The notes under the pieces: generated by a model
Seen by the model: the letters and a program-made list of their open reading frames with translations, nothing else
The model's database searches: none
What the model was told of the DNA's origin: nothing
In this document: in pieces, positions 4,790 through 18,575 of the stretch
Numbering within the stretch: position 1 is the stretch's first letter
How the letters are laid out: each line of letters starts with the position of its first letter
Made by a program: the position numbers and the translations under genes
Source: Breznakia sp. PF5-3
Lineage (GTDB): Bacteria; Bacillota_I; Bacilli_A; Erysipelotrichales; Erysipelotrichaceae
NCBI RefSeq assembly: GCF_029504745.1
Contig: NZ_JAQFIQ010000046.1
Span: forward strand, 1-18,575
DNA: 18,575 nucleotides
Direction of reading: 5' to 3'

Positions 4790-5390
4790 TGTTAACTCCT
4801 TGTTTATAATTTTGAATTCTTTCTTCAATTTCATTTATTTTATGAATAGGCAATATGTAATTTATTGTTGGATATAAAATCAATCTAGAATCATCATCTC
4901 TTAAATCTCCGATTCGCTCGCAAATATTATATCTCGATAAAAACTGATATAATTCTTTTAATTCTGTTATATTAATTCTTTTATCATATAACCCCGTTGC
5001 TTCAACTTCAGCATGCAATTCTCCCAAAGTAACGTTGATAAATTCTGTATCTTGCAATTCTTGAGACTTTTGAAAATACATTTTTCTCAGTAACAACAAA
5101 ACAACTGAATAAATTTTATTTATATTCAAATGATTATAATTATTCTTATTTATAATGTAAACAACCTGATCAGCTTTGTTTATATAAAAATTGTAATCAA
5201 TCAAAATTAAAAAATTACTGAATAACGATTCATAATCACTGATAAAATAATAATCATTTCTATCTTTTTTTCTCCCACCACATAAATAGTTAACAGATAA
5301 TAATCGATTGAGAATTCTTGAAAAATTATCCCTTTGATAAGTAGACATATTAGAATAAGTCCTAAGAATATGTTCCATTTTATCTTCCAT
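4758..5390 (-). CDS. jetB: Wadjet JetB (MksE-like, DUF4194-type) subunit
   Basis: 210-aa ORF between jetA and jetC, starting 1 nt after the jetA stop and overlapping jetC by 32 nt. AAGGAG lies upstream. The assignment rests mainly on the conserved operon position and size. No catalytic motif is expected. Confidence 0.7.
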   Translation of the reverse strand: MEDKMEHILRTYSNMSTYQRDNFSRILNRLLSVNYLCGGRKKDRNDYYFISDYESLFSNFLILIDYNFYINKADQVVYIINKNNYNHLNINKIYSVVLLLLRKMYFQKSQELQDTEFINVTLGELHAEVEATGLYDKRINITELKELYQFLSRYNICERIGDLRDDDSRLILYPTINYILPIHKINEIEERIQNYKQGVNNEDIDKSEID

Positions 5391-5391
5391 A

Positions 5392-6735
5392 TTATTTTTT
5401 CTCCTTTATTATAAATTCTCTAAACTTGTATTGATTTGTATTTACAAGTGTATTTAATGGTTCTATTTTGTATTTTGATTTTTCGTTATATCCGTATAAC
5501 CATGTTAAAACAAACAGGGATATATCCATTTGTTCCTTAAAATATACGGATCCATTTAAGACTGAATTACCATCTAATCTTTCCAAAATACGCTTCTCAA
5601 TTGATTGCTGAGTATACTTACTGTTTACTTTAAGCCTATTTATTTCTTGCTCACGAATTAAATCATCCAATTTCACTTCTTTTATAGACTCTAAATGCAT
5701 TGGTAACTTTTGCTTTCTAGATGAAAAAATTGAATGTGAGTCTAAAGTTTTATTAACAGACAATTCTACTATATTATTTAAACTTCCATCATATTGTTGC
5801 CCTGATTTGATAATTTCATTTATCTTTCCACCTATATCTTCTTTTACATTAATTAAAAACAGTATTCTGTTCGTTGCCGAAGCAACAAACTTTTCATTCT
5901 TTTTGCTTATTTCATTAATCAAATCTAATATACTTTCAAAAGAATCGATCATATAGTTTGTTTGTTCATCGAAAATATCATATGCTTTTTCATATGTTAT
6001 ATCTTTGCTATCCATTATATTTCTTACTATACAATTAATTTTTTCTTCTGAATTTCTAATTTCACTAATTGCAGCTATTATAGTATTTCTATATTTTAAA
6101 GGATGATCTCGGGTAGTCAAGTTATAAAAAGCTCTATCTACAATCATTAACTGATATTCATTAAGTAATGAATCCAATAACTGATTTAAATCATTTTTCA
6201 TATTATCTCTTAATAATTTTTTAATATATCGTTTAATATTTGTATTTAAATTTTTTAATTTATTCATTAATTCTTTTGTTGTTCTGTAATGAGAGTCAAG
6301 GATCTTATGCCCATTATTTACATCAAATCTAACAAATGAAGAATAAATATTATATACCATACTTGAATATTCAACATCTGCATCTGCATCCAATTGAAAT
6401 AATATGTTCATAATTGATGTTGCATAATCTTCAAAACTTGCATAAATTTGGTAATTATCCCCTTGTTCTTCCGAAATCCACCCACAATCTTTGAGCCTTT
6501 TATAAATATTATCTGCCCTTTCTTTTGGTGTTCCAGAAGCTATTTCATCAGTTTCTATAATATGTGAATTAAAATACTTAGTCAATTCGAATATCACATT
6601 TTCTTTTAAAGAAGCAAAAGCTGAGTCTTCTTTCATATAATCATACAATACAAATAAGCATTCACTAATCATACCTTTGTTAGAATTATTAAAAATATTG
6701 AAAAAATTTATAGGTAATGTCTCAAAAATATTCAT
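5392..6735 (-). CDS. jetA: Wadjet JetA (MksB-like kleisin, DUF3375-type) subunit
   Basis: First gene of the operon. About 447 aa from the ATG at 6735 (MNIFETLPINFF), which is preceded by GGAGGG plus 4 nt. The listed 490-aa ORF starts at a TTG with no SD. The assignment rests on position and size in the jetABCD order. Confidence 0.7.
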   Translation of the reverse strand: MNIFETLPINFFNIFNNSNKGMISECLFVLYDYMKEDSAFASLKENVIFELTKYFNSHIIETDEIASGTPKERADNIYKRLKDCGWISEEQGDNYQIYASFEDYATSIMNILFQLDADADVEYSSMVYNIYSSFVRFDVNNGHKILDSHYRTTKELMNKLKNLNTNIKRYIKKLLRDNMKNDLNQLLDSLLNEYQLMIVDRAFYNLTTRDHPLKYRNTIIAAISEIRNSEEKINCIVRNIMDSKDITYEKAYDIFDEQTNYMIDSFESILDLINEISKKNEKFVASATNRILFLINVKEDIGGKINEIIKSGQQYDGSLNNIVELSVNKTLDSHSIFSSRKQKLPMHLESIKEVKLDDLIREQEINRLKVNSKYTQQSIEKRILERLDGNSVLNGSVYFKEQMDISLFVLTWLYGYNEKSKYKIEPLNTLVNTNQYKFREFIIKEKK

Positions 6736-6778
6736 TTTTCCCTCCACAATATTAAATATATTTCCTCTTATATTTTTA

Positions 6779-6807
6779 ATTATACTATAATATTTAGTAT
6801 AAAATAA
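6779..6807 (-). promoter_or_regulatory. Possible sigma-A type promoter of the jet operon
   Basis: The minus strand reads TTATTT-17 nt-TATAAT, with the -10 box 43 nt upstream of the jetA ATG. The -10 is perfect but the -35 is weak. AT-rich context makes chance matches likely. Confidence 0.25.
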
Positions 6808-6952
6808 CCTTTTCTGATGCTTGGGTAGTATAAAATATCTTGTGTAAACTCTTGGAACTACCAATCCACGAGTAATAGTTAATATAGAAAAAGGGAACCG
6901 TTCCTAGTAGAATTAATTGTGACCAAACAATATTCGAAAGGAAGGTTACCCA

Positions 6953-7050: not shown

Positions 7051-8292
7051 TGGATAGGCTACATGGAATGGCAACACTTTTGTAGACAAATTTTATAAGG
7101 TCATGTTTTGTCTATATTCCACAGAACTTTGATAACCTAAAGTTGAATGCACTCGCTTATTGTTGAACCAATATACGTATGCGGATAATTCTTGTTCCAA
7201 ATTCAGCAATGATGCAAACGTTCTTTCGCGGACGAATTCAGCTTTGATTATTTTGAAATGTGCTTCTGCAACTGCATTGTCCTATGGATTTCCTTTTCTA
7301 CTTAAGGATCTATCAATTCCAAATGTTTCTAATACATTATCGATTAAATGATTATCAAATTCATTACCTCTATCTGTGTGGAATATATCATATTCAAATA
7401 GATTTCCTTTGATGCTTAAAAATGCTTGTTTCACAAGTTTTGCATCTTTATATTTCCCACAACTATAACCTACAATCTCTCGATTATACAAATCGATAAT
7501 TACACAAATGTAATTCCATTGGTTATTCACCCTAACGTACGTTAAATCACTTACTATGACTTCCTTTGGCATTCTCTCATCAAATTCTCGATTTACTTTA
7601 TTTTCTATGTTTGCTTTATTAACAGTTGTCTTATGTACTTTATATTTCTTCACTGTATATACTGATACAAGCCCATTTTGATGCATAATCCGTGCAATTC
7701 TTCTTGATATACAAATGCCTTGTTTCGCTAATAAATGCTTGATTCCCCATGTTCCATAGACTTTCTGGTTATCATCAAATATTCTAACTACAATATCATT
7801 GTAACTATCAACCTTTGTTACCACATCTTGGTATTTATAATATCCAGACCTCGAAATATTTAATGCCTTACACATTTTCACTACCGAATATTTGTGTGCA
7901 TTTGCTCTGATTACTTTTACTTAGGACGTAATCAGAGCTGCTTGCTTCTAGGTGCCCTTGGGGCATAAAATATCGTTCTCCATTTCAAGCTGTTTATTTC
8001 TTTTTCTTAAAGCAATTAATTCTTTTTCTTCTGGAGTAAGGCTATCTTTTGTTTTGAATGATCCTGCTGTATCCGCCTGTTTAATCCATTTTGTTAATGC
8101 TGAAGGGGTTAAATCATATTCTCTAATAATTTCGGGCTTGGGTTTTCCACTTTGGTATAAGTTTACCCTTTACTGTTTAAATTCACTTGTAAATACTTTA
8201 CGTTTTCTTCTTGTTGTCATTTTCTTTTCCTCGCTCTTCTATTTTACCATGACAACCTTATCTTTTCTGTTTACTTTATTGTAGCCTATCCA
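7051..8292 (-). mobile_element. IS3-family insertion sequence, 1242 bp, inactivated
   Basis: Terminal inverted repeats TGGATAGGCTACA (7051-7063) and TGTAGCCTATCCA (8280-8292), with the TG...CA ends typical of IS3. It contains OrfA-like HTH and OrfB-like DDE coding sequence. No target-site duplication is seen (flanks ...TTTA and ATTAC...). Confidence 0.85.
7093..8220 (-). pseudogene. IS3-family transposase (OrfA HTH + OrfB rve/DDE) with four in-frame nonsense codons
   Basis: One continuous frame of 375 codons: MTTRRKRKVFTSEFKQ*RVNLYQSGKPKPEIIREYDLTPSALTKWIKQ...ENDILCPKGT*KQAALITS*VKVIRANAHKYSVVKMCKALNISRSGYY...SDLTYV...HTDRGNEF...SRKGNP*DNAVAEAHFK...YWFNNKRVHSTLGYQSSVEYRQNMTL*. The stops are at 8170-8172 (TAA), 7948-7950 (TAG), 7921-7923 (TAA) and 7282-7284 (TAG, where GNPYDNA is expected). 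Confidence 0.85.
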
Positions 8293-8297: not shown

Positions 8298-8489
8298 AGC
8301 AAAAGTAATCGTAATACCCTTTATACAACCACATATAAACCATTTTAACTGCCATTTGTTTTTAGTCAATATAAAACCATTGGTAGTTTTCTTTTACCCT
8401 TACATACCTTTTATTGTCAGTATTAATACTCCTCTCTACAAAGTCTATTATGTATCTTATACTTGGTTTATGAAAGTGAGGAATATAAT

Positions 8490-8735
8490 ATGACAACTGA
8501 TATTAAAACTTCTCTGATAAATGATTTATGTATTTCAATCCAAGACACAATACTAATTGGGATAGAGCAGCAACCTAATGATTTTATTTATCTAATAAAT
8601 ACGATTAATCTACTAACAGCATTTCAAAATAACGGTATTAAAATTGATACTACTATCTTCACAGATATTTACATGGATAACCTTTATAGGGAGATACGAA
8701 CATTTCTATTGAAACCCTACAAAATTGAAGAATAG
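8490..8735 (+). CDS. Hypothetical small protein (81 aa)
   Basis: The only plausible plus-strand gene. The ATG at 8490 (MTTDIKTSLINDL...) is preceded by AGTGAGGA 8 nt upstream. I see no recognisable motif. It lies between the IS3 element and the convergent terminator hairpin. Confidence 0.4.
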   Translation: MTTDIKTSLINDLCISIQDTILIGIEQQPNDFIYLINTINLLTAFQNNGIKIDTTIFTDIYMDNLYREIRTFLLKPYKIEE

Positions 8736-9039: not shown

Positions 9040-9492
9040 TTAAATATTTCTCGCTTCTGGTATACTATCTCTAAAATTCTGAATGAAATCCTTTTGATTT
9101 GAAAATACTTTAACAAATGAAGAGTCTTCTGAAATTATTTCAATGATACTCAAAGAAGGAAAGTATTTTTCTGTTTTATAAGTTGGAAGTTGATTTTTCA
9201 ATACATCTTCTAATGAAGTAGTTAAAGGAAACGCTATGATTATTCCCCAAATAAATTGAAGGGTTTCATTTTGAATTAATTCGTTAAAATCTTTTCCTGT
9301 TAACCATATGTAATCATGTCTTTTATTTTCCAATTCCTCAGTTGGATAATAATTACATTCATACTGTGTAATCAACCAATTATATTGACTTGTATTTATT
9401 TTACATGCTTCAACTATAACATTTAAATCAGTGTAATATATTTTTGAATTATTATAATAAATGTCTCTTCCTTGTAAAATTGCTCCATCCAT
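9040..9492 (-). CDS. Putative cytoplasmic immunity protein of the orphan toxin tip at 9504-10061
   Basis: 150-aa ORF starting 11 nt after the toxin stop, with AAGGAGA 6 nt upstream of the ATG. No signal peptide. The assignment is by position immediately 3' of a polymorphic-toxin C-terminal domain. Confidence 0.6.
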   Translation of the reverse strand: MDGAILQGRDIYYNNSKIYYTDLNVIVEACKINTSQYNWLITQYECNYYPTEELENKRHDYIWLTGKDFNELIQNETLQFIWGIIIAFPLTTSLEDVLKNQLPTYKTEKYFPSLSIIEIISEDSSFVKVFSNQKDFIQNFRDSIPEARNI

Positions 9493-9503
9493 TCTTATTC
9501 TCC

Positions 9504-10061
9504 TTATTTTCTAACTGGTGTTCCATTAATCCATTCCCAATAATGTTCATGTGGGAAGGTATGTGTACCAGAACCATTTCCATGTAAGAAATCAATATCC
9601 TTAATCATATTACCATTACTATCATAAAATCTTCTTTGCCACAATTCACCATTCACATACAAATCTTGGCTAGAATTTGGTGTAGAAGTTTTTGGTAAAT
9701 CCCCACTTCTACCATTTACATTTTTATGATTTGACATCTTATCTGATTGGCTACCCCATTTATCACCCGAACCCTATCCATTATTTATTGGTAGTCCCAT
9801 AAGTGCGAAAGAACCAGTGCTTATTCCTACACTTGTTAAAAATAAGATTTCATCAAAGTTTGTTATGTCTTCTCCTGCTATTATTTTAGCACCCAGTGCT
9901 ATTTGAGTTGCTTGTGCTGTTATTGCTGCATTTTGTGCCGCTGTAACTCCTGCTGGAGTAATTGTTAGCATACCTCCTCCAGCTAATCTAACTCCTCCTA
10001 TTGCGAGATTATAAAATATCCTCCTGCAGTTGTTATCAATCTGTATGAATTTTAATATACT
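9504..10061 (-). pseudogene. Orphan Rhs C-terminal toxin tip interrupted by an in-frame TAG
   Basis: It starts with a short Rhs core-end homology (SILKFIQIDNN, 10023-10061, compare SIGNFIQIDNNYAG at 18530-18575). Next comes an Ala/Gly-rich hydrophobic segment, then ...LPINNG*GSGDKWG... with TAG at 9774-9776. It ends in a His-rich tail: LYVNGELWQRRFYDSNGNMIKDIDFLHGNGSGTHTFPHEHYWEWINGTPVRK. There is no start codon at the homology boundary. Confidence 0.65.
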
Positions 10062-10082
10062 TAATCTATAAATAGATCTTAA

Positions 10083-11102
10083 CTATTTACTAAAATATTC
10101 AGATATCTTAATATCGTTAATTTCTTTTCCATCTTCTGAGATTTCATATAATTCCTTTTCAGAATAAAATTTAATCTCTTTATTAACATTATAAATTGCA
10201 TAAAGCACTTCTGTTTTAACTGATGATGAAATATCTAATCCATCCTTATTATATAACTGCTTTAATTGTTCATAAATAAACTTTGATGTCTCATAATCAT
10301 TTATCGAACTCTCATCAGTTCTAACATTTGGTATGTATGCATTCAATATTCTAGTTTCTTCTTTTAAAATCTCATTTCCTTTTTTGGATTCATTCAAAGT
10401 TTTTGTAAAAACCGATAACTTATCTCTGTACATTTCCAAATCATAATAATATATATTCCTAATATACTGAACCCATTGATTTAACTCAGAAAAGAAAATT
10501 GATTCATAATCATCAAACTTATATTTTTTTATTGCTTCTTCTAATTTTGACTTAGGCTCATATAACTTAATTAGTGACTCTTTTATAGCTACTAAATCAA
10601 ATTTTTCTGATTTATTATTATAAAATATTTCTATTTCAACTTTACTTAAATCATACTGTTCTTTTTTTGCGTACTTCCATGACTCATCAAAATCCATTAA
10701 TCCTATATTATTATATTTTACAGGTTTCCCATTTTTCAAATTAAAAAGTTCTATATTTTCTTTCTCTAAAGACACTTTCTTACATTCATTTTTATTATTT
10801 TCACAAAAACTAATTATTATTTTATCAATCTTATAATATGTTGTTCCTTTTATTACTATTTCAAAATTGCTTAATGATTGGTCATATTGATTGTAGAATA
10901 CATATTTTATATCGAAAATTTCTCCACTTGAAATCAATTCTGGGGATTTATTGTAAAATCTTTCAATTTGTTTTTCTTCATAGTCTGTCATTTTATCAAT
11001 GTTTATTTCACTTTTCTTATCTGTAACAAAATTAACCAGTGAAACACTAAGAATTATTACAGATACGATTAATATACTTACTAATAGTGCCTTTTTTTTC
11101 AT
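10083..11102 (-). CDS. Membrane-anchored extracytoplasmic protein, paralog A (putative immunity protein)
   Basis: 339 aa with an N-terminal MKKKALLVSILIVSVIILSVSLVNFV anchor and GAGGAG 6 nt upstream. It is clearly paralogous to 11648-12679 (for example ERFYNKSPELISSGEIFDIKYVFYNQYD versus EVFYDKSPNLISYGENFDVKYVFYNVYD). It lies downstream of a toxin-tip fragment. Confidence 0.65.
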   Translation of the reverse strand: MKKKALLVSILIVSVIILSVSLVNFVTDKKSEINIDKMTDYEEKQIERFYNKSPELISSGEIFDIKYVFYNQYDQSLSNFEIVIKGTTYYKIDKIIISFCENNKNECKKVSLEKENIELFNLKNGKPVKYNNIGLMDFDESWKYAKKEQYDLSKVEIEIFYNNKSEKFDLVAIKESLIKLYEPKSKLEEAIKKYKFDDYESIFFSELNQWVQYIRNIYYYDLEMYRDKLSVFTKTLNESKKGNEILKEETRILNAYIPNVRTDESSINDYETSKFIYEQLKQLYNKDGLDISSSVKTEVLYAIYNVNKEIKFYSEKELYEISEDGKEINDIKISEYFSK

Positions 11103-11345
11103 TTCTTTCTCCTCGCATAATAATTTTAAAAATATGAATTGCTTATTTTTTGTGTGCTGATATTAATCTTAGTTTTTACTATTCAAACATTTATTATGAG
11201 CATTGACTTAAAGCATTTAACAAAACCTGTAAACTCCCTGCATATGAGTATTCGTCTTTTATTTCGATAACTATTTCCTTTATAAATAGTCTTTTTTTGT
11301 AAATGGTTATTTTAAATTTTCTCTAGTTGATCCATTTCCAAAAAA

Positions 11346-11591
11346 TTATACTATTGCTACATATTTTCCAATTTGCTCGTCTTTACTTGAATCTCTTGCA
11401 TAACTGATAAAATTTGTATTTCCATAATAGCTATTCTTTGCTGAATGATATTTCCTTACTGCTACCATTATCATTGAATTCACGCTACTCCATAAAGGAT
11501 CTCTTTCTTGATGTACAGGTGAATCCCCTTTTCTAACATTAATAATCCATGTACTTTGTTTACGAATACTTAACCCTGCATTATCAGTTAT
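11346..11591 (-). pseudogene. 5'-truncated orphan toxin-tip fragment, paralog of 12694-12900
   Basis: 81 open codons with no start, preceded by ATG-AAC-TAA: ITDNAGLSIRKQSTWIINVRKGDSPVHQERDPLWSSVNSMIMVAVRKYHSAKNSYYGNTNFISYARDSSKDEQIGKYVAIV*. By eye it aligns with ...AGKILD(K)ELLTKNVRNDDPSLYSAVDDLWNSTDGLVTYAIRLYYDSKNSLFGFNYLSYKNHNSAKDKLVKYYNAVI*. Confidence 0.5.
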
Positions 11592-11647
11592 TTAGTTCAT
11601 AATCTATCATTAGCGCTAACCCTTCTTTGATAGTATTATTCTATCAT

Positions 11648-12679
11648 TCATTTTTTAAAATATTCATTAATGTTTTCATCCCATTCTTCTCCATTGACAA
11701 TAGAATTCAGTTTTCCTGCATTATACAATTTCATACTATCATTACATTTATTAATTACGTGTATCAATTTAGATTTAACTGATGAAGATAAATAATCAGT
11801 TTTTTCATAATACAATTTTTTTAAATTCCTATATATTTCATTAGCCGTTTCTACATTCTCAATTTCTGTATCTCCGTATGATGGCCAAAAAGCATTTGGT
11901 ATAATAGTATTGTCTGATAAAATTTCTTTTTTATATTTCGATTCTACTATTGTTGTAGTGAAATCGGTTAATTCTTTCAAATATAATGAACTATCAAAAT
12001 AATATAGATTATGTAAATATTCACTCCATTCATTAATACCTTTATTATACATCTTTCCATTTTCTTTAGAATATGAACCAACTACCTCATATATAGTTTT
12101 TGAAGGTTTGTATAAATTAATCATTTCATTTTTATTAAATTTTAAATTCAATTTTTCTACCAAACCATCATAATAGATTTCAACTTCAACCGATTCTATA
12201 TTAATAGTTTTATTTTTTCGTTTTGAATATTCAAAATTATTATCAACATCGCTAAAACTGAAGCTATTATATCTTATAGGTACTTTTTTATTGTAATCAA
12301 ACAGTCTGATTTGTGAATTTTCTACATCTCTTGATATACAATTGTTTGAAGTGTCATATTCACAAAATTTTAATTTTATTTTCTCAATATCTATAAATTT
12401 ATCCCCTTTCATTACGACGTCAAATGAACTTGTCATGGGGTCATAAACATTATAAAATACATATTTCACATCAAAATTTTCTCCATAAGAAATCAGATTA
12501 GGAGATTTATCATAAAAAACTTCTATATTCTTCTTTTCAATATTACTCATCATAGAGTCATCTATACTTTTTGAGGTGCTATTTATCCACAAATTTACAC
12601 CTGCAAATATAACTATTGCAAGAAGCACTATTATAAATAGTACTTCTTTTCTCCCAAAATTTAATTTCTTTTTTCTCAT
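11648..12679 (-). CDS. Membrane-anchored extracytoplasmic protein, paralog B (putative immunity protein)
   Basis: 343 aa with an N-terminal anchor LFIIVLLAIVIFAGVNLW. It starts 14 nt after the stop of the toxin tip at 12694, with GGAGGA upstream. Paralog of 10083-11102. Confidence 0.65.
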   Translation of the reverse strand: MRKKKLNFGRKEVLFIIVLLAIVIFAGVNLWINSTSKSIDDSMMSNIEKKNIEVFYDKSPNLISYGENFDVKYVFYNVYDPMTSSFDVVMKGDKFIDIEKIKLKFCEYDTSNNCISRDVENSQIRLFDYNKKVPIRYNSFSFSDVDNNFEYSKRKNKTINIESVEVEIYYDGLVEKLNLKFNKNEMINLYKPSKTIYEVVGSYSKENGKMYNKGINEWSEYLHNLYYFDSSLYLKELTDFTTTIVESKYKKEILSDNTIIPNAFWPSYGDTEIENVETANEIYRNLKKLYYEKTDYLSSSVKSKLIHVINKCNDSMKLYNAGKLNSIVNGEEWDENINEYFKK

Positions 12680-12693
12680 AAATCCTCCATTAT

Positions 12694-13175
12694 TTATATA
12701 ACAGCATTATAATATTTAACTAATTTATCCTTAGCTGAATTATGATTTTTATAGGATAAATAATTAAACCCAAAAAGACTATTTTTTGAATCATAATATA
12801 ATCTTATTGCATATGTTACTAATCCATCCGTGCTATTCCAAAGGTCATCAACCGCACTATATAATGATGGATCATCATTTCTCACATTCTTTGTTAACAA
12901 TTCTTTAATCTAATATTTTTCCCGCCTTGATCTGTAGCAATTTTATACACTGAGTCAAAAGAAAAAGAGGAAAGTTTAATTTTTCTTCGAATGCCACCTT
13001 TGATAAATGAGCCCATTTCCTAGCAAAATTTTCTGCCCATAATTTCCCATCCCTATCTACGTACTTATAAGGGTAGGATAAGGTGTAGTTATACCGATTC
13101 TGTGTTCCTACATCTTCTTTCTCTCCTGCATAGTTGTTATCTATCTGTATGAAGTTTCCTATACTTGGATTATAA
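12694..13175 (-). pseudogene. Orphan Rhs C-terminal toxin tip with a frameshift
   Basis: 13044-13175 is near-identical to the main-gene core end at 18444-18575 (YNPSIGNFIQIDNNYAGEKEDVGTQNRYNYTLSYPYKYVDRDG). The tip follows: KLWAENFARKWAHLSKVAFEEKLNFPLFLLTQCIKLLQIKAGKILD*. The frame breaks around 12903-12910 (GATTAAAG), and removing one T restores ...ILDKELLTKNVRNDD..., as supported by the paralog at 11346-11591. There is no start codon. Confidence 0.65.
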
Positions 13176-13278
13176 GTGAATAATAGAAATAGATTTATTT
13201 CATTAATCCTTTATTTTATAGCATTAAAAATGCTGTGATTATTTTTATACTATTTATTACCCAAAATAAGTCTATATT

Positions 13279-14235
13279 TTAACATCCATCCCCTGACAAA
13301 CTTATATATCTACAAATTTCCACATCATTATTATTTTCAAAAATCACCATATTTGTTTCTCTAATAAAATCCATATTGTTTATTGGAATCCTCCCTTTAT
13401 AGGTGTCAACAATATCAAGTGTATCAGGATTAATAATATTTATTTTACCAAGTACCTCATATTTATCAATAACCTTAAAATTATTTAATGATATAATTTT
13501 TATTTCCCCATCTATCTCATACATTAAATAATTACTTTTTTCATTTATTACAAAATCAATTGGCGTTGTTCTATCTATTGTTTTATCAAAATAAACTATT
13601 TTCATATTATTTCTAATTGATATATGTTTTTCCCCAGAAATAACTAGGTATTTCAAAGACTTGTAATACTTGAAAATGTCATCATTAGAACTAAAAACAT
13701 CTAATTCTACTAAATCATTTTGTGCCAAATAAAATGATTTAGTCATAAATTTTTTTGACTTCATTGGCAATTCAGTTGTTACAATAAAATAAGTCTTTTC
13801 CGTATTCAATCTACTGATTACATGTAGTTTTGAATCAAGTGATTGTTCCATAATTTTTTCTTCATCGCAGTTCCATTGTATTAATTTATTTTTATGCTTT
13901 TCACCCTCAAAATAAGAAAATTGAAGATACATTTTATTTGATACCATTGTCATAACATCCATTGTTATGCTATCTTCCATTAATTCTAATATTTTTTCTA
14001 CAGAATCATTAATAAAGTCTATTTTTAATACATAATGATTATTGAAGAATACAAATAAACAATTATCAGCTTCAGAAAAACACCCTGCAGAAGGATAATC
14101 TATTCTTAATTCATATATTTTTTCATTGTTTGAATTATAAACCCTTACATACTTGGCAACATAAAGGGCGTATAGCCCTTTACTATATGATGTTGCCAAT
14201 AAAGAAGTCCTCCTATATTTTTTAATAAGTTTCAT
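13279..14235 (-). CDS. Hypothetical cytoplasmic protein (318 aa), repetitive beta-strand-like sequence; possible immunity/accessory protein
   Basis: Long intact ORF. AAGGAG lies 7 nt upstream of the second ATG (MKLIKKYRR). No signal peptide and no motif I recognise. It sits behind the putative lipoprotein gene in the cassette headed by the Rhs tip at 14811-15078. Confidence 0.55.
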   Translation of the reverse strand: MKLIKKYRRTSLLATSYSKGLYALYVAKYVRVYNSNNEKIYELRIDYPSAGCFSEADNCLFVFFNNHYVLKIDFINDSVEKILELMEDSITMDVMTMVSNKMYLQFSYFEGEKHKNKLIQWNCDEEKIMEQSLDSKLHVISRLNTEKTYFIVTTELPMKSKKFMTKSFYLAQNDLVELDVFSSNDDIFKYYKSLKYLVISGEKHISIRNNMKIVYFDKTIDRTTPIDFVINEKSNYLMYEIDGEIKIISLNNFKVIDKYEVLGKINIINPDTLDIVDTYKGRIPINNMDFIRETNMVIFENNNDVEICRYISLSGDGC

Positions 14236-14284
14236 TTGCATTCTCCTTTACTACCTTTATTTTTTTAATATACTATTAATATAT

Positions 14285-14806
14285 TTAATCACTTATTAGA
14301 TTATATTTAATATTATTTTCGTCGAATTTTTGATTCTCAAATAATTGCATACTCCAAACAATATAATGCCTATTTTCTCCATCAATTTTTAGTGTGATTG
14401 ACTTATACTGGAAAAATCTCACATCTGCCTCATATTCGACTGTTCCTTTACCAACTATTACTCCAAAATATTGGCTTTCTTTTGATTCTCCTGGAACTTT
14501 AAAATATTTAATGTCATCATTAAGAATGTATCCGCCCTTCACATATCCTCCTTTAGAAATTTTTGACAAATAGAAAATATGATATGTATCTCTTGTATCT
14601 TCAACTATAGCTATATAAAAGTTTTTATATTTTATTTTAAGCTTTGTGTTTTTATATTCTGGTCTAATCCCATCAGAAGGAGGAGTATCATCTGAGTCAA
14701 AATACTTCTCAATTATATTTACTGAATTTTCATTATCTTCAAAGATAACACACCTTATGCATCCAAAGATGATAATCAAAGACAAAAAAGCAATTATTTT
14801 TTTCAT
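14285..14806 (-). CDS. Putative secreted protein or lipoprotein (173 aa)
   Basis: MKKIIAFLSLIIIFGCIRC has a signal-peptide shape with a lipobox-like IFGC. AAAGGA lies 8 nt upstream. The ATG lies 4 nt after the frame-corrected stop of the toxin-less Rhs tip. Confidence 0.6.
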   Translation of the reverse strand: MKKIIAFLSLIIIFGCIRCVIFEDNENSVNIIEKYFDSDDTPPSDGIRPEYKNTKLKIKYKNFYIAIVEDTRDTYHIFYLSKISKGGYVKGGYILNDDIKYFKVPGESKESQYFGVIVGKGTVEYEADVRFFQYKSITLKIDGENRHYIVWSMQLFENQKFDENNIKYNLISD

Positions 14807-14810
14807 TTTT

Positions 14811-15078
14811 TACATCCTTTCAATTAAAGAGTTAACCACTTGCTTTTGCTGATTTGCTTTCTTTGCATTGGCTGTGGCTTTTTTTGGACATTGCATTTAC
14901 ACCAGATAATAGTGATAATCTAAGCTTCGGTTTCTTTGCCTTATTCCCATCCCTATCTACATACTTATAAGAGCTAGATAAGATGTAGTTATATCTGTTT
15001 TGTGTTGCAATATCTTCCTTCCCATCAGCATAGTTATTATCAATCTATATGAAGTTTCCTATACTTGGATTATAATAA
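14811..15078 (-). pseudogene. Orphan Rhs core-end plus tip linker, lacking a toxin domain, with a nonsense codon and a homopolymer frameshift
   Basis: 14871-15078 is homologous to 18385-18575 (roughly four-fifths identical by eye). It reads NYYNPSIGNFI*IDNNYADGKEDIATQNRYNYILSSSYKYVDRDGNKAKKPKLRLSLLSGVNAMSKK..., with TAG at 15045-15047. The T run at 14879-14885 is 7 long versus 6 at 18390-18395 in the main gene. After correction only about 20 more codons follow before the stop. Confidence 0.6.
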
Positions 15079-15246
15079 TTAAAAAGTAGTAGACTATTTT
15101 TAATTATTATTTCAAAATTCTAATTTACATTCATATAGTCCAGTTGACTCCACACAATCACCAATTTTTCTATACTAATTGTAAAATCTCAATAATTATC
15201 TTTTACTTTACAATCAGAATATCCATATTATTTTCTTTCGTTATTT

Positions 15247-15603
15247 TTATACTTCCTCATTCCTTTGTATAAGCTTTCTTTTGCTAAAATTCAAATATGT
15301 TATTGTAAGAGCTGGCAAAGCTATTATAAAATTATCAAAATTTCTATTTGCTATCAACACTATCATATTTGCTATTGTTATTATCCATAAAGGGACAAGC
15401 AAAAAATATGCTGTTTTCTGCTTCCATGATGCTGTGTTGTTGAAACTCCCTAATTCAGTTAACAGATAAAAAACACCTAGTAAAAGTATGGTATTTCCAA
15501 TTGAAAAAGCAAGAACTTTTATAATTTCAATTATTCCTATTGGGTTACAATATATTACACTAATTCCTAATAATAATATATACAATCCTATTATTTTTAT
15601 CAT
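15247..15603 (-). CDS. Small polytopic membrane protein (3-4 TM), putative immunity to a membrane-acting toxin
   Basis: 118 aa from the ATG at 15603 (MIKIIGLYILLLG...), with GGAGGA 7 nt upstream. There are hydrophobic stretches IKIIGLYILLLGISVIY, VLAFSIGNTILLLGVFYLL, AYFLLVPLWIITIANMIVLIA and FIIALPALTITYL. The start is 1 nt after the stop of the toxin remnant. Confidence 0.65.
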   Translation of the reverse strand: MIKIIGLYILLLGISVIYCNPIGIIEIIKVLAFSIGNTILLLGVFYLLTELGSFNNTASWKQKTAYFLLVPLWIITIANMIVLIANRNFDNFIIALPALTITYLNFSKRKLIQRNEEV

Positions 15604-15604
15604 C

Positions 15605-15688
15605 TTATATTCCTCCAATTAACACTATTTTTCCAACTGCACCTAGTCCAATTCCAGTCTTCCAAACTGCTTCAATTGTTGTATAACT
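15605..15688 (-). pseudogene. Remnant of a toxin C-terminus ending in a glycine-zipper-like hydrophobic segment
   Basis: 27 open codons with no start: SFDFSYTTIEAVWKTGIGLGAVGKIVLIGGI*. It is tightly abutted to the membrane-protein gene in the usual toxin-immunity arrangement. It is too short for a family assignment. Confidence 0.3.
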
Positions 15689-15769
15689 AAAATCAAATGA
15701 TCAACCCACATCAACACCTAATCATATAAATCCCCCTAGATAAATAGTCAAAAGGTGATAATGACAGTG

Positions 15770-15804
15770 ATATTGGCACTTTCCTACAGAAAAGTGCCCA
15801 ATAT
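15770..15804 (-). repeat. Cassette-boundary hairpin, copy B
   Basis: Plus strand ATATTGGCAC-TTTCCTACAGAAAA-GTGCCCAATAT (one bulged base). It lies 10 nt after the stop of the immunity ORF 15815-16273, and the spacer begins TTAATT as in copy A. Confidence 0.6.
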
Positions 15805-15814
15805 TTAATTATTC

Positions 15815-16273
15815 TTACATCCCATCATCATAAGGGTTTCTAGTTAAAATTTCTGCTATCTCTTTTTTCCCCATTTGATAATATACTTCATCAATAGATG
15901 ATAAGATTTCTAGTCTTTTTTCAAAAGACCATCTTCTCCAGTCACCAGAAAAATCTTTTACTATATATACTGGTGGTGTAGACAACCTAAATGCAATATC
16001 CCAAAAAATAGAAAAACACAATTCTGATAATGTATATGTCTTATTATCCTTATGCAGTTCTCCACAATCTCCAATACCAAGTTTATGGTAACCTGCTTCA
16101 TTTGAATAGATAATAACAAAAGGACCAAATTTATGCTTAGTTATTTGAAAATAATTTGTAAACATATAAGTTTCTTTTAAGTCATTTAATAATTCCTTTT
16201 TATATTTACTTTTATTTAATTCAGACTTTACAAAAACTTCCAATTCCTCTATATTAAATAGTTTGTCTTTCAT
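15815..16273 (-). CDS. Putative immunity protein for the TNT-like (NADase) orphan toxin
   Basis: 152-aa intact ORF. GGGAGGA lies 9 nt upstream, and the start is 17 nt after the toxin-remnant stop. Cytoplasmic. Assigned by position only. Confidence 0.65.
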   Translation of the reverse strand: MKDKLFNIEELEVFVKSELNKSKYKKELLNDLKETYMFTNYFQITKHKFGPFVIIYSNEAGYHKLGIGDCGELHKDNKTYTLSELCFSIFWDIAFRLSTPPVYIVKDFSGDWRRWSFEKRLEILSSIDEVYYQMGKKEIAEILTRNPYDDGM

Positions 16274-16290
16274 TTCTTTATTCCTCCCAC

Positions 16291-16494
16291 TTAGTAACCT
16301 AAATAATTATTGTCTAAATACCATTGAATAGGCTTTGGTAGGACATATTGTAGTCCGCCACCAGGTGACCTGGACTGTAACGTTACTGATTTTTCACTTC
16401 CTGGTACAGCACCATTATTTGGTGGATAATTCATACTTCCATCTTTATTATCCAACTTGTGTTCCCCGACCCCTGTCCAAAAAATTGATTTCAT
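16291..16494 (-). pseudogene. Internally deleted TNT-domain (NAD+ glycohydrolase-type) toxin remnant
   Basis: ...DGSMNYPPNNGAVPGSEKSVTLQ joined directly to SRSPGGGLQYVLPKPIQWYLDNNYLGY*. YPPN(D/N)G...G.e...L is the start of the TNT domain and (q)PGGG.QY.L......L...GYL is its end, so roughly 90-100 residues of catalytic core are missing. The listed ORF start (16557) lies across hairpin C and is not credible. Confidence 0.6.
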
Positions 16495-16501
16495 AATATA
16501 C

Positions 16502-16539
16502 AAAATTAGACACTTCTCTATTAAAAAGTGCCTAATTTT
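16502..16539 (-). repeat. Cassette-boundary hairpin, copy C
   Basis: Plus strand AAAATTAGACAC-TTCTCTATTAAAAA-GTGCCTAATTTT (12-bp arms, one mismatch). It lies 7 nt after the stop of the immunity ORF 16547-16885. Confidence 0.55.
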
Positions 16540-16546
16540 GTATAAA

Positions 16547-16885
16547 TTAAATGCCAAAATGAATTATATATTTTTTTTCTTTTATGGCTTCTTCAATTAG
16601 TTCTATTAGTTTTTTCACTTCACTTCTATTCTCATCTTTTATTACAACATTTAAGAATTCTAAAAGTGATTTTGGTGGAATAAGTGTTACTCCATAACGT
16701 GCCAACCCTTCATTAGGCCTATTTAAGTTATGCCAAAACGTCGGCATTTTTTTCAGGTTGGAAACCCATTCATTAACAAAATCATCTGAGATTTTTACAT
16801 AATTATATTTATCTTTATCCGTAAAACTATAATCATACTCTAATTCTAAATGATCAATTATTGCAAACTCATTATATGGTCCCAT
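16547..16885 (-). CDS. Putative immunity protein (112 aa) of the orphan toxin fragment at 16858-17121
   Basis: Intact ORF with AAGGAG 7 nt upstream of the ATG. It overlaps the end of the toxin-fragment frame by 28 nt. Cytoplasmic and acidic/basic mixed, with no motif I can name. Confidence 0.65.
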   Translation of the reverse strand: MGPYNEFAIIDHLELEYDYSFTDKDKYNYVKISDDFVNEWVSNLKKMPTFWHNLNRPNEGLARYGVTLIPPKSLLEFLNVVIKDENRSEVKKLIELIEEAIKEKKYIIHFGI

Positions 16886-17121
16886 AATTTATCTCCTTCT
16901 ATAAATCCATCAACTTTTGACTTTGTAGCTCCCTTCAAGTTTTTAGAAAATTCTACTGCTTTATTCAAATAATTTTGCTTACTCGTTGCTCCTACTTCTG
17001 ATCCGTGTTTAGCATAGTGCTTATCAAGTGAAGTTTGAGGACTATCATGACTACCTTTATCCCAATTCTTCTCTGCAGTATATTCACTACTCTCCGAACC
17101 CTGTACAAGAGAACCTAATTT
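16858..17121 (-). pseudogene. 5'-truncated orphan toxin fragment, no start codon
   Basis: 87 open codons bounded upstream by a TAG (17122-17124): KLGSLVQGSESSEYTAEKNWDKGSHDSPQTSLDKHYAKHGSEVGATSKQNYLNKAVEFSKNLKGATKSKVDGFIEGDKLWDHIMSLQ*. The LDKHY.KHG.E.G...YL..A..F helix pair looks like the opening of small nuclease-type polymorphic toxin domains, but this is a weak recollection. No ATG, GTG or TTG is usable, and there is no Rhs-core homology upstream. Confidence 0.45.
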
Positions 17122-17133
17122 CTAACTACATTG

Positions 17134-17169
17134 ATATTGGACACCTCTCTATAGAAAAGTGTCCAATAT
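17134..17169 (-). repeat. Cassette-boundary hairpin, copy A
   Basis: Plus strand ATATTGGACAC-CTCTCTATAGAAAA-GTGTCCAATAT, with perfect 11-bp arms and a 14-nt loop. It lies 10 nt after the stop of the immunity ORF 17180-17689, and the spacer begins TTAATT. Confidence 0.65.
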
Positions 17170-17179
17170 TTAATTGCGT

Positions 17180-17689
17180 CTACATTATATCAACAAATAA
17201 ACCTAATTCTTCAATTTTTTTTATACTATTCTTTTTTAAATTATCACATACACAATACATATAGTAATCATAGCCAAATTGAATTTTAAATTTATTATTA
17301 ATATCTGTAAATTCACACCATATTAATTCTCTTAAAACTAGAGTGGCTAATATTAGTGCTTCATCTAAATCCAAAATCATTTCATTTTTTGCTTTTTTAA
17401 ATATTTTTTCTGTTTTTGAATAAGGCATATCAAATGTTTTTTTCTTGATTTCTTCAAAAGAAAAATACTTTTCCATCTTTTTTACAATGATATTCTTAGA
17501 ATTAAAATTTTTAAAAATAATACTAATCGAATCCAAATATTTTTTTTCCACTCTCAAATACATCTCTAAACTTAATTTAGTTCCATTAAATTCTTTTCCA
17601 ATTTCTCCTACTGAAGTCCAATCATCTACAGAATATGCTCCATTTTCTACCCTATATTGAGAATTATATTTTGTTATTCTATATTTCAT
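17180..17689 (-). CDS. Putative cognate immunity protein of the main Rhs toxin tip
   Basis: 169 aa from the ATG at 17689 (MKYRITKYNSQY...), with AAGGA 8 nt upstream, 19 nt after the toxin stop at 17709. The longer listed start at 17719 overlaps the toxin gene and lacks an SD. Confidence 0.7.
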   Translation of the reverse strand: MKYRITKYNSQYRVENGAYSVDDWTSVGEIGKEFNGTKLSLEMYLRVEKKYLDSISIIFKNFNSKNIIVKKMEKYFSFEEIKKKTFDMPYSKTEKIFKKAKNEMILDLDEALILATLVLRELIWCEFTDINNKFKIQFGYDYYMYCVCDNLKKNSIKKIEELGLFVDIM

Positions 17690-17708
17690 TTTTTTGTCCT
17701 TTCTCACT

Positions 17709-18575
17709 TTATGGTGCAATCCAATTCAAGTTAGCATCATATGTCCCCATTCGAGTGGATTTACTTCCTAGATTTTTAATTGAATCAGCCATCTTCCAAA
17801 CCCCTCCACTATGTGCATCTACATCTGGGGTAATATATCTATTACCTTTTCGAAATACTTTTTGACCATGTGAATATTGGTTAGTATCTTTGTATCCTAG
17901 TTTATTTGCTGCCTCTGTGGCTTCTTTATTGGTCATAGGAGTCTTATTCGAACCCTTATTTTTATCTTTGTCTTTATTATTAGGATCCCCTGGATCAGAA
18001 GCAGTATTTGATGTGCTAGATGTTTTTACTTTATCCTTCTTTTTCGCATCTGCTTGCTCTTGCTTGTACCTGTTAATTTCATGATATTGTTGGCTATGTG
18101 GTGGGTACAATCCATCCCATTCTTTCCAATACCCTTTCCCAACGTTTACTCCTCCTCGATCACACATCTTCTTCCAAGCATTTGCAACTTCATTTCCTAA
18201 CCCTACAAATCCATCTACTGCATAATCAAATAAGCCTAATGCTCCTGCTGCCAAAATTGCAGCTAATCCTGCTAATATTCTTCCTAAGGTATCAATGATT
18301 GGTGGTAATTGACCTAATACCTCTACATATCCAAGAGTTGGCTTAGGAGCTGGATTGTTTGTTTTCTTTTTTGTTGTATTAGCTGCGGCTTTTTTGGCCA
18401 TTGCATTTGTACCAGATAATAGTGATGATCCAAGCTTCGGTTTCTTTGCCTTATTCCCATCCCTATCCACATACTTATAAGGGTTAGATAAGGTGTAGTT
18501 ATACCGATTCTGTGTTCCTACATCTTCCTTCTCTCCTGCATAGTTGTTATCTATCTGTATGAAGTTTCCTATACT
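17709..18575 (-). CDS. Rhs/WapA-type YD-repeat polymorphic toxin, 3' end only (core end plus C-terminal toxin tip); partial, continues past the right edge
   Basis: The frame is open to the window edge (867 nt, in frame with the stop at 17709). It reads SIGNFIQIDNNYAGEKEDVGTQNRYNYTLSNPYKYVDRDGNK, matching the RHS repeat-associated core end (RYY.P.IGRFI..D.Y.G....N.Y.Y...NP..Y.D..G). The variable tip follows: a hydrophobic LGRILAGLAAILAAGALGLF segment, a K/D/N-rich linker and a terminal module ...KLGYKDTNQYSHGQKVFRKGNRYITPDVDAHSGGVWKMADSIKNLGSKSTRMGTYDANLNWIAP*. Confidence 0.85.
   Translation of the reverse strand, partial: SIGNFIQIDNNYAGEKEDVGTQNRYNYTLSNPYKYVDRDGNKAKKPKLGSSLLSGTNAMAKKAAANTTKKKTNNPAPKPTLGYVEVLGQLPPIIDTLGRILAGLAAILAAGALGLFDYAVDGFVGLGNEVANAWKKMCDRGGVNVGKGYWKEWDGLYPPHSQQYHEINRYKQEQADAKKKDKVKTSSTSNTASDPGDPNNKDKDKNKGSNKTPMTNKEATEAANKLGYKDTNQYSHGQKVFRKGNRYITPDVDAHSGGVWKMADSIKNLGSKSTRMGTYDANLNWIAP

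Follow-up and report, generated by a model that had tools for sequence, protein, structure and literature searches.

What does a bacterium keep in a row of mostly broken toxin fragments, each followed by one or two intact genes: an arsenal, or protection against the toxins of others? This question is raised by a contig of an unclassified Breznakia sp., strain PF5-3 (NZ_JAQFIQ010000046.1), an insect-gut-type bacterium placed in the Erysipelotrichaceae, Bacillota. The whole contig of 18,575 bp was analysed and is called the window below. Its positions 9040–18575 very probably hold the 3′ end of a gene for a WapA-type RHS polymorphic toxin (toxin T1, immunity-type gene I1) together with an array of toxin/immunity cassettes (T2/I2 to T8/I8; Table 1). 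All genes of the array are on the minus strand. Between 9000 and 18575 this strand has 12 stop-free stretches of at least 100 amino acids (aa) and the plus strand has none, against a mean of 0.02 such stretches in composition-preserving shuffles; the GC content ranges from 22 to 39% across the window. A preliminary description, made from the letters alone, had proposed an Rhs tip with at least seven downstream cassettes, and all the features that it claimed were recovered on the minus strand, at the same coordinates or a few bases off. These include the tip fragments that lack core homology, which are present as stop-free stretches (17121–16861, 16563–16294, 15700–15608 and 11591–11349). The translations quoted there also match, except for a leading YNP that comes from the copy at 13175; the contig itself begins SIGNFIQ.

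The protein at the right edge of the window matches positions 42–75/76 of TIGR03696 (Rhs_assc_core) with 21.1 bits, below the cutoff of 32.5 because the contig end cuts the domain. Two fragments from Breznakia sp. PM6-1 with the same sequence but greater length, P0038 and P0026, score 47.8 and 49.6 bits against this cutoff. The core-end motif is PYKYVDRDGN. As the preliminary description had stated, the core-end DNA recurs at three downstream sites. Positions 18575–18390 are 88% identical over 186 nucleotides (nt) to 15065–14880 in T5 (85.6% over 215 nt in a second alignment, E=6.5e-66), and 18575–18454 are 95.9% identical over 122 nt to 13165–13044 in T6 (E=2.4e-52). The T8a remnant aligns to the core at 80.6% over 72 nt, and within it 10061–10021 aligns to the core end at 86% over 43 nt (E=2.8e-7). 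The same core end is found with different toxins, namely Ntox21 in the window, Ntox33 in the sister-strain locus L030, and a phage-type lysozyme (P0038) and Tox-PL-2 (P0026) in PM6-1. Sister-strain draft assemblies all break at this core, which indicates that it is multi-copy; the PM6-1 contigs carry the T1 frame 48 nt further upstream (KEETGLIYLRARYYD) and then break. It is barely conceivable that the repeated 130–200-bp segments are an unrelated dispersed repeat family instead of rhs core ends. The breaking of assemblies at these segments is all that speaks for it, whereas the segments translate into the C-terminal half of TIGR03696 and are continuous with 14 RHS_repeat stretches in L030, and likewise in the proteins P0169 and P0176.

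The L030 locus (GCA_030266565.1) was found by look-up of the I8 protein, and here the same locus is assembled through. A protein identical to I8 is encoded downstream of a full-length RHS gene of 2,818 aa. The 3′ end of this gene is 97% identical to window 18575–17950 (626 bp), and its downstream flank is 99.5% identical to window 9775–7726. The gene product has RHS_repeat (E=4.6e-153), YD_repeat_2x (E=3.4e-102), Rhs_assc_core (45.2 bits against the cutoff of 32.5), LysM (E=5.6e-10) and DUF6531 (E=3e-13) matches, and begins with a hydrophobic signal-like sequence (MKKIKKIGAAFLACLMLLQA...). The presence of YD/RHS repeats upstream had been set beforehand as the deciding test of the preliminary description; they are present in this orthologous gene, and the window itself ends inside the core. 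An exhaustive profile search also returned, for the same core clade, the full-length parents P0169 (2856 aa) and P0176 (2830 aa), both with LysM, DUF6531 and RHS_repeat (E=1e-137 to 4e-157); the N-terminus of P0169 is signal-peptide-like. Two profile searches of a word-indexed protein database gave only proteins of at most 735 aa, and as they missed P0169, which was in the query, they are uninformative on long proteins. By the order seen in L030, the main protein would consist of a Sec signal peptide, LysM, DUF6531, the YD-repeat shell, the RHS core end, a linker, a joint reading KGS and a toxin domain of 75–80 aa. Such a protein would be exported by Sec, anchored to the wall through LysM, released by autoproteolysis at the core end and delivered into neighbouring cells.

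The T1 end of the main gene is tripartite, with a core, a linker and a toxin domain, and the joint between the last two reads ...NKDKDKNKGS. Its frame is uninterrupted up to the contig edge. Linker A is common to the Tox-PL-2-tipped PM6-1 protein (46% over 176 aa) and to L030. The toxin domain of 79 aa belongs to Ntox21 (PF15526, E=2.7e-26, 92.2 bits against a cutoff of 25) and aligns with PDB entry 4NTQ_A (E=3.2e-7), where YITPDVDAHS..WKM stands opposite YITPDIDSHN..WKM. This entry is the CdiA-CT (C-terminal toxin region) of Enterobacter cloacae, which targets 16S rRNA with the active site D203/D205/H207/K214 (PMC9086364; PMC3482391). The catalytic D-x-D-x-H and K are kept in T1, and its predicted activity is 16S rRNA cleavage.

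The open reading frame (ORF) next to this toxin, I1, is presumptively its cognate immunity protein, and the synteny evidence for this is good. In 8 of 14 independent loci, which come from Clostridia, Lachnospiraceae, Oscillospiraceae and Patescibacteria, Ntox21 is immediately followed by an I1 homologue (29–37% full-length identity, E as low as 7e-31). Eight unrelated genomes carry these I1-type ORFs of ~170 aa, in L003–L009 and L018 (for example, L007 10206–10712). Profile and sequence searches matched I1 to no Pfam family and no PDB chain, and the family of ~170 aa has no Pfam or NCBIfam model. The single-sequence AlphaFold2 (AF2) model of I1 was unusable (pLDDT 40).

Comparison of the window with L030 revealed tip replacement directly, as the preliminary description had suggested looking for: the tip/immunity pair is Ntox21/I1 in the window and Ntox33/DUF4279 in L030. 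T1 and the L030 gene diverge immediately after the octamer AGGGTTCG, which lies at the joint between linker and toxin domain. On the other side of the exchanged pair, L030 9647–9725, located 3′ of the DUF4279 immunity gene, is 85% identical to a hairpin element at window 17175–17095. Thus the first difference between the strains is a swap of toxin domain and immunity gene between the KGS joint and the hairpin element. In L030 this element directly precedes T8b, which opens with QGS. The second difference is a 7.3-kb indel (window 17095–9775) between the hairpin-QGS unit and the QGS of T8.

Beyond T1/I1 there are seven orphan cassettes, and none of them has fewer than one or more than two intact ORFs. 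Across the locus, nine intact immunity-type ORFs of 112–343 aa were observed, all with an AGGA/GGAGG-type Shine-Dalgarno (SD) site 5–10 nt 5′ of the ATG. The preliminary description had a small intact ORF with its own SD after each tip; intactness and SD sites are borne out, not all of the ORFs are small, and the T5 cassette breaks the one-ORF pattern with two. Four Breznakia assemblies, PF5-3 among them, have records of the downstream proteins. Their clusters are all singletons named 'hypothetical protein', with the sole exception of one 'DUF2691 family protein'. The toxin parts fall into two classes. Class A orphans (T5, T6, T8a) keep core-end homology, whereas in class B (T2, T3, T8b) the linker/toxin joint is the exact starting point; the conserved hairpin element precedes T2 and T3. 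T2, T3, T4 and T7 are stop-bounded fragments that have no initiation or export signals of their own; in T5 and T6 the homology is lost at YNPSIGN, and further upstream there are stop codons and no start. Most orphan toxin parts are decayed by nonsense codons, deletions or frameshifts, and all nine immunity-type ORFs are intact. The core-end copies, each with a tip and an intact ORF, bear out the displaced-tip architecture known from rhs and cdi loci. The seven older cassettes would have been displaced downstream as new toxin/immunity modules recombined in, and today the array would mainly store immunity genes for protection from the toxins that related strains carry. Both the immunity function of the ORFs and the order of displacement are read from this arrangement.

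Are the orphans instead functional spare toxins, swapped in by homologous recombination at the core end? Toxin replacement between strains is real, core-end homology is kept at T5, T6 and T8a, and the mechanism has been shown in Salmonella, there with 522 bp at 95% identity (PMC3967940). The tracts in Breznakia, on the other hand, are short (122–227 bp at 86–97%), and each tip that carries one is broken. In T5 a TAG interrupts the core and no more than 37 aa of linker remain; the frame of T6 breaks after 46 aa; T8a is decayed, and a TAG separates it from the toxin domain. Since all core-homology orphans are broken and the tracts are short, core-end recombination would give dead toxins. Moreover, the 5′ breakpoint of the observed swap is the linker/KGS joint and not the core end, and T3, T4 and T7 are fragments. 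Hence we consider an active tip-switching reservoir of this kind unlikely. The proposal in the preliminary description that retained core homology serves as substrate for tip switching stands for the homology itself and fails in that T5, T6 and T8a could yield no working toxins. Only T2 and T8b are plausibly revivable as toxin domains.

The array has a second conserved joint in addition to the core end. The octamer AGGGTTCG occurs 3 times in the window against 0.05 expected, and none of 200 shuffles reached three. All copies are on the coding strand, one at the T1 linker/toxin joint, one in the first codons of T2 and one in the first codons of T8b. T3 carries a variant motif, ACAGGGGTCGG, at 16477–16466, one base off AGGGTTCG. 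The tips without core homology had been described as tip fragments; T2, T3 and T8b instead begin at this joint (...GS). On the 3′ side, an element of ~80 nt, made up of a 16–22-bp hairpin, a spacer and ACAGGGTTCGG, follows I1 and I2, and a partial copy follows I3. In the first copy the hairpin is at 17169–17134 (-21.3 kcal/mol, z=-5.4) and ACAGGGTTCGG at 17105–17094. The hairpin consensus pattern has 5 matches, where 0 are expected. Two compensatory pairs exist among four hairpin copies, and several U·G pairs are workable on the sense strand only. In none of the other related loci compared was the element found; it has no Rfam match, and a literature search returned nothing comparable to borders made of joint plus hairpin.

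We put forward, as a possibility short of a probable reading, that the cassettes have dedicated borders on both sides: a 5′ joint, (A/C)AGGGTTCG(G), encoding ..(K/Q)GS, and the 3′ hairpin unit of ~80 nt. Two such homology arms would allow exact exchange, insertion or deletion of units of toxin domain plus immunity gene without involving the RHS core. What suggests this is that the two strains compared differ by exactly such events, the KGS-hairpin swap and the 7.3-kb indel. The hairpins and joints may be recombination substrates, terminators, mRNA stabilisers or simply inherited flanks. Rfam and transfer RNA (tRNA) scans of the window gave no match, and there is no tRNA integration site in it. 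In consensus scans, which are uninformative in such AT-rich DNA, promoter-like sites were not enriched (81 against 72.9 ± 7.9 in shuffles) and no canonical terminators were seen on the coding strand.

Several observations weigh against the interpretation of the locus as a whole. The RHS body is outside the window, as the contig ends inside the repeated core. Exact-protein look-ups for the body in the window strain gave only contigs that break at the same core, a scan of genome contigs did not find a conspecific RHS body, and two metagenome DNA scans gave zero matches. That L030 comes from the same species is itself inferred from 97–99.5% DNA identity. Main genes truncated at the 5′ end occur in the lineage, in B. 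pachnodae and two metagenome-assembled genomes (MAGs), with no full-length gene upstream. Some family assignments are also below threshold: the L021 homologue of T8b matches Ntox24 (PF15529) with E=3e-4 and 21.5 bits (cutoff 24), and I3 matches Imm63 (PF15599) with E=0.0016 and 19 bits (cutoff 26.7). The immunity-type families I2, I4, I5a and I5b are placed by position only.

These truncated genes, found without an RHS body in L017 (B. pachnodae), L021 and L022, and the failure to recover the body in the window strain, would also fit a right-edge gene that is itself a truncated remnant without an RHS parent, the 9.5 kb being then a purely defensive poly-immunity island. We regard this as quite improbable. 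At this locus L030 has the complete gene, which stays 97% identical as far as the toxin joint; the T1 frame is open to the contig edge, and is prolonged upstream by the PM6-1 contigs; and the Ntox21 domain is intact with its catalytic residues. A main gene with an attached toxin and displaced cassettes behind it thus remains our reading of the locus.

Table 1. Coordinates of the features in the window (aa, amino acids; SD, Shine-Dalgarno site; TM, transmembrane)
Feature	Position	Strand	Basis
T1, 3′ end of main wapA/rhs gene	17709..18575	-	translation; Pfam; PDB; L030 identity
T1 core end (SIGNFIQIDNNYAGE...NPYKYVDRDG)	18575-18456	-	TIGR03696
T1 linker A, ~170 aa, hydrophobic helix (LGRILAGLAAILAAGALGL)	18455-17949	-	hydropathy
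T1 KGS junction motif AGGGTTCG	17956-17949	-	motif search
T1 Ntox21 toxin domain, then stop codon	17948-17712	-	Pfam PF15526
I1, 169 aa, presumptive Ntox21 immunity protein	17180..17689	-	SD + ATG; synteny
Inter-cassette element 1: 16-bp-stem hairpin, spacer, T2-opening junction motif	17095..17175	-	pattern search; RNA fold
T2, orphan toxin domain	16858..17121	-	stop-free stretch; opens at AGGGTTCG
I2, 112 aa, immunity-type ORF, SD GAAGGAGA	16547..16885	-	singleton 'hypothetical' cluster
Hairpin 2, 22-bp stem, 3′ of I2 stop	16497..16544	-	-25.8 kcal/mol, z=-9.7
T3, internally deleted TNT-type (NAD+ glycohydrolase) remnant	16291..16500	-	Pfam; PDB alignment
I3, 152 aa, immunity-type ORF, SD GGGAGG	15815..16273	-	weak Imm63 resemblance
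Hairpin 3, 3′ of I3 stop	15770..15804	-	-16 kcal/mol, z=-3.8; pattern search
T4, 31-aa C-terminal remnant, small and hydrophobic residues (GIGLGAVGKIVLIGGI)	15605..15700	-	stop-free stretch
I4, 118 aa, polytopic membrane protein, SD GGAGG	15247..15603	-	hydropathy; 3-4 hydrophobic helices
T5, core-end copy and start of linker A	14832..15078	-	88% over 186 nt to main core end
I5a, 173 aa, N-terminal hydrophobic helix and Cys	14285..14806	-	ORF; SD; hydropathy
I5b, 320-aa soluble ORF	13279..14241	-	ORF; SD
T6, core-end copy, linker B start and toxin remnant	12694..13175	-	DNA and protein alignments
I6, 343 aa, N-terminal TM anchor, immunity-type ORF	11648..12679	-	paralogy; AF2
T7, 81-aa toxin C-terminal remnant, T6b homologue	11346..11591	-	stop-free stretch; alignment
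I7, 339 aa, I6 paralogue, TM helix	10083..11102	-	alignment; hydropathy
T8, oldest orphan	9504..10086	-	core alignment; motif
I8, 150 aa, DUF2691 immunity-type ORF	9040..9492	-	Pfam PF10903
Wadjet JetA	6864-5392	-	Pfam, PADLOC
Wadjet JetB	5390-4758	-	Pfam, PADLOC
Wadjet JetC	4834-1547	-	PADLOC
Wadjet JetD	1560-373	-	Pfam, PADLOC

Among the cassettes without core homology, T2 has ~78 aa after its QGS junction, comparable to the 74–79 aa of Ntox21 and Ntox33 domains, and is on that account possibly intact. It has no Pfam, PDB or plasmid (tblastn) match, and I2, which overlaps the T2 stop by 25 nt at its start, has no Pfam family. T3 matches positions 61–85/88 of Pfam TNT (E=0.0011, 19.8 bits, under the cutoff of 27), and its N-terminal NYPPNNGAVPGSEKSV aligns with NFPPNNGAVPGTRIAY of PDB entry 4QLP. 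Only the first ~17 and the last ~25 TNT residues are retained and the middle is gone; with a score below the cutoff as well, we take T3 as a deleted remnant and not as a working member. Imm63 is paired with Ntox40, Tox-CdiAC and Tox-ARC by Zhang et al. (2012, PMC3482391). As no pairing of Imm63 with TNT is explicitly made there, we dropped such a pairing as support for I3. T4 and I4 have no Pfam family; T4 is possibly the tail of a membrane-active toxin, and the membrane protein I4 would fit this.

T5 is 69% identical to T1 over 65 aa. It is broken by a CAG to TAG nonsense change in the core (15047–15045) and is truncated after 37 aa of linker. Of its two ORFs, I5a has no Pfam or NCBIfam match and its N-terminal signal appears lipoprotein-like, and I5b has no Pfam, NCBIfam or PDB match. 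The core-end copy of T6 (13175–13044) covers TIGR03696 positions 38–75. It continues into the start of linker B (to ~12975), which is common to the lysozyme-tipped RHS protein of PM6-1 (93% over 201 nt to L019, and 88% over 66 aa to P0038), and the frame breaks after 46 aa. T6b, a C-terminal toxin remnant of 71 aa (12909–12697), is 35% identical to T7. Core-fused copies of the T5 and T6 linkers occur in other strains (T1, L030, P0026, P0038). The toxin domains T2, T3, T8b and T6b/T7 were not found on any full-length gene among the available loci.

I6, from an unnamed family, is 36–37% identical to I7 and 25% identical to a 380-aa ORF in L016, which adjoins an intact RHS tip on its 3′ side. The AF2 model of I6 (pLDDT 67, pTM 0.64) combines a beta-sandwich with a helical domain and a transmembrane (TM) helix. 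Searched against the PDB with Foldseek, it matched only generic beta-sandwiches (best E=0.016, TM-score at most 0.2), and a PDB sequence search gave nothing significant. T8 consists of T8a (10086–9777), a decayed core-end remnant with hydrophobic linker, and the toxin domain T8b of 87 aa (9773–9507). They are separated by a TAG at 9776–9774, a CAG to TAG (C to T) change inside the junction motif, the motif copy being at 9775–9768. T8b is 39% identical to the L021 tip; T8b itself has no Pfam match at E<0.1 and nothing significant in a PDB search. I8 matches DUF2691 (PF10903; E=4.1e-6, 27.2 bits, cutoff 25) and is 29% identical to the ORF 3′ of the T8b homologue in L021, so that a T8b/I8-type pairing occurs in two distant genomes. 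Three tip/immunity pairings therefore recur in other genomes: T1/I1, T6/I6-type (L016) and T8b/I8-type (L021). The preliminary description could assign no motif to several tips and to all immunity-type proteins. This holds for several of them; Ntox21, DUF2691, a TNT remnant, an Ntox24-like tip, a weak Imm63 resemblance and the Ntox21-linked family could be assigned.

Orphan rhs-CT/rhsI modules are known in Escherichia coli, Dickeya and Salmonella Typhimurium LT2 (Poole et al. 2011, PMC3150448; Koskiniemi et al. 2014, PMC3967940). As in these enterobacterial systems, there is a main gene with a conserved core end, a variable tip and an immunity gene, followed on the same strand by fragments that keep some core homology and have no start or export signals, each with an immunity gene after it; the model of displacement by an incoming module is also the same. 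Unlike them, the Breznakia host is Gram-positive and the protein is of Sec/LysM (WapA) type, whereas theirs are linked to the type VI secretion system. The core end is PYKYVDRDGN in Breznakia and PxxxxDPxGL in enterobacterial rhs, and the homology tracts on the three broken tips are well short of the Salmonella length. Breznakia also has the second joint (..GS) after a linker of ~170 aa, and the hairpins after immunity genes.

Among Gram-positive WapA systems are WapA/WapI of Bacillus subtilis and WapA-CT1/CT2 of Streptococcus suis, where WapA-CT1 has 3,158 aa (PMC12704120). Like WapA-CT1, the L030 protein has a signal peptide, LysM, DUF6531, an RHS shell and a C-terminal toxin, and S. suis likewise has truncated 'Rhs orphan' duplicates downstream (PMC12704120). 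Unlike in these WapA systems, no DNRLRE domain was detected in the Breznakia-type protein. No SecF-like or SrtB genes are seen upstream in L030, where there is a conserved gene for a 150-aa membrane protein instead, and the Breznakia array is far longer (seven orphans) with another toxin repertoire. The upstream gene, of ~150 aa with an N-terminal hydrophobic/Cys segment, nearly abuts the full-length wapA-like gene on its 5′ side in two loci that are only distantly related, L030 (156–608) and L023 (297–764). Pfam gave no family for it; a role as accessory factor in export or anchoring is possible.

T1 belongs to the same Pfam family, Ntox21, as the CdiA-CT(ECL) of E. cloacae (4NTQ) and keeps the catalytic residues, but it is carried on an RHS/WapA scaffold and not on CdiA of the type V secretion system. 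As I1 has no detectable similarity to any PDB chain, it is apparently unrelated to CdiI(ECL). The tandem of diverse intact immunity-type genes, with toxins absent or dead, resembles the heterogeneous poly-immunity loci of Zhang et al. (2012, PMC3482391). Unlike those, the Breznakia genes are still beside toxin remnants and a live main toxin gene, which makes their origin by displacement visible. Finally, in the 'mobile regulatory cassettes' (promoter/stem-loop) of T4-type phages, short conserved stem-loop elements reportedly flank swapped gene modules and could provide homology for recombination (PMC2839356). This is a different biological system, and the likeness to the Breznakia borders is one of concept.

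The related loci of the comparison vary in form. Genes of 278–438 aa with a core end and a tip but no RHS body are present in L017 (6433–10855, B. pachnodae), L021 (7922–10837) and L022 (10001–10906). In L017 and L021 they are directly 3′ of an Agr-like LytTR response regulator and histidine kinase, L017 also having an AgrB-like gene, and in L022 the gene comes after a gal operon. We considered a stand-alone class of short core-and-tip toxins beside agr-like systems and set it aside, as RHS homology continues upstream of the B. pachnodae ATG to a stop, which makes these genes appear to be rhs remnants cut at the 5′ end; comparison with P0168 identified this gene as a 5′-truncated rhs remnant. 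L021 also has an ORF of 794 aa (11863–14247) that combines ~200 aa of YD repeats with a core end of the same type and a tip of ~400 aa. It starts right after an unrelated gene and so is a longer form of rhs remnant. Proteins of 550–650 aa with the same shape were many in a database search, some with up to 243 member sequences.

In PM6-1, L019 (1–3460) has the same core end with a phage-type lysozyme tip, then three tandem paralogous ORFs of 230 aa; L020 (1–5736), another contig, has this core end with a Tox-PL-2 papain-like tip, then an ORF of 234 aa, with HNH and WapI-family (PF24716) proteins nearby. Breznakia genomes thus hold several core-end loci. In L016 (166–2541), from a MAG labelled Aminipila sp., the RHS shell end and core have 92–95% protein identity to B. 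pachnodae and P0168. Given the Clostridia label, this suggests mis-binning or recent horizontal transfer.

The other half of the window has a complete type I Wadjet anti-plasmid system on the minus strand (373–6864), so the array adjoins a defence system. Pfam matches are JetA (E=3.4e-76), JetB/DUF4194 (E=1.6e-20) and JetD_C (E=3.1e-21), and PADLOC matches are JetA1 (5.9e-79), JetB1 (7.2e-62), JetC1 (3.6e-285) and JetD1 (1.7e-100). An IS3-family remnant lies between array and Wadjet on the minus strand (7096–8169). It has an orfA-like helix-turn-helix part (8169–7951) and an rve-type orfB (7920–7285) that has a stop and continues at 7281–7096. The L030 contig ends inside this remnant, which suggests that it is repeated in the genome. 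Between array and remnant there is a plus-strand ORF of 90 aa (8463–8735), which has no family match and may not be a gene.

These data extend the rhs/wapA orphan-array architecture to the Erysipelotrichaceae, in an unusually long form of eight cassettes. They also capture a toxin-domain swap that occurred naturally between near-identical strains, its breakpoints known to the base. The family of I1 is unnamed, tracks Ntox21 across Firmicutes and could merit naming as a new immunity family. Further new material includes the TM-anchored family of ~340 aa (I6, I7 and the L016 ORF) without a structural relative, the pair of Ntox24-like tip and DUF2691, and at least one small toxin domain without an assigned family (T2). 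If the two-sided borders are true, they would add a layer of cassette shuffling so far not described in rhs or cdi loci, for which homology is recognised on the 5′ side only; and if they act as recombination substrates, this would account for the movement of toxin/immunity units as discrete cassettes. The array itself consists mostly of traces of lost toxins beside immunity genes that were preserved, which supports its upkeep for defence rather than as an arsenal.

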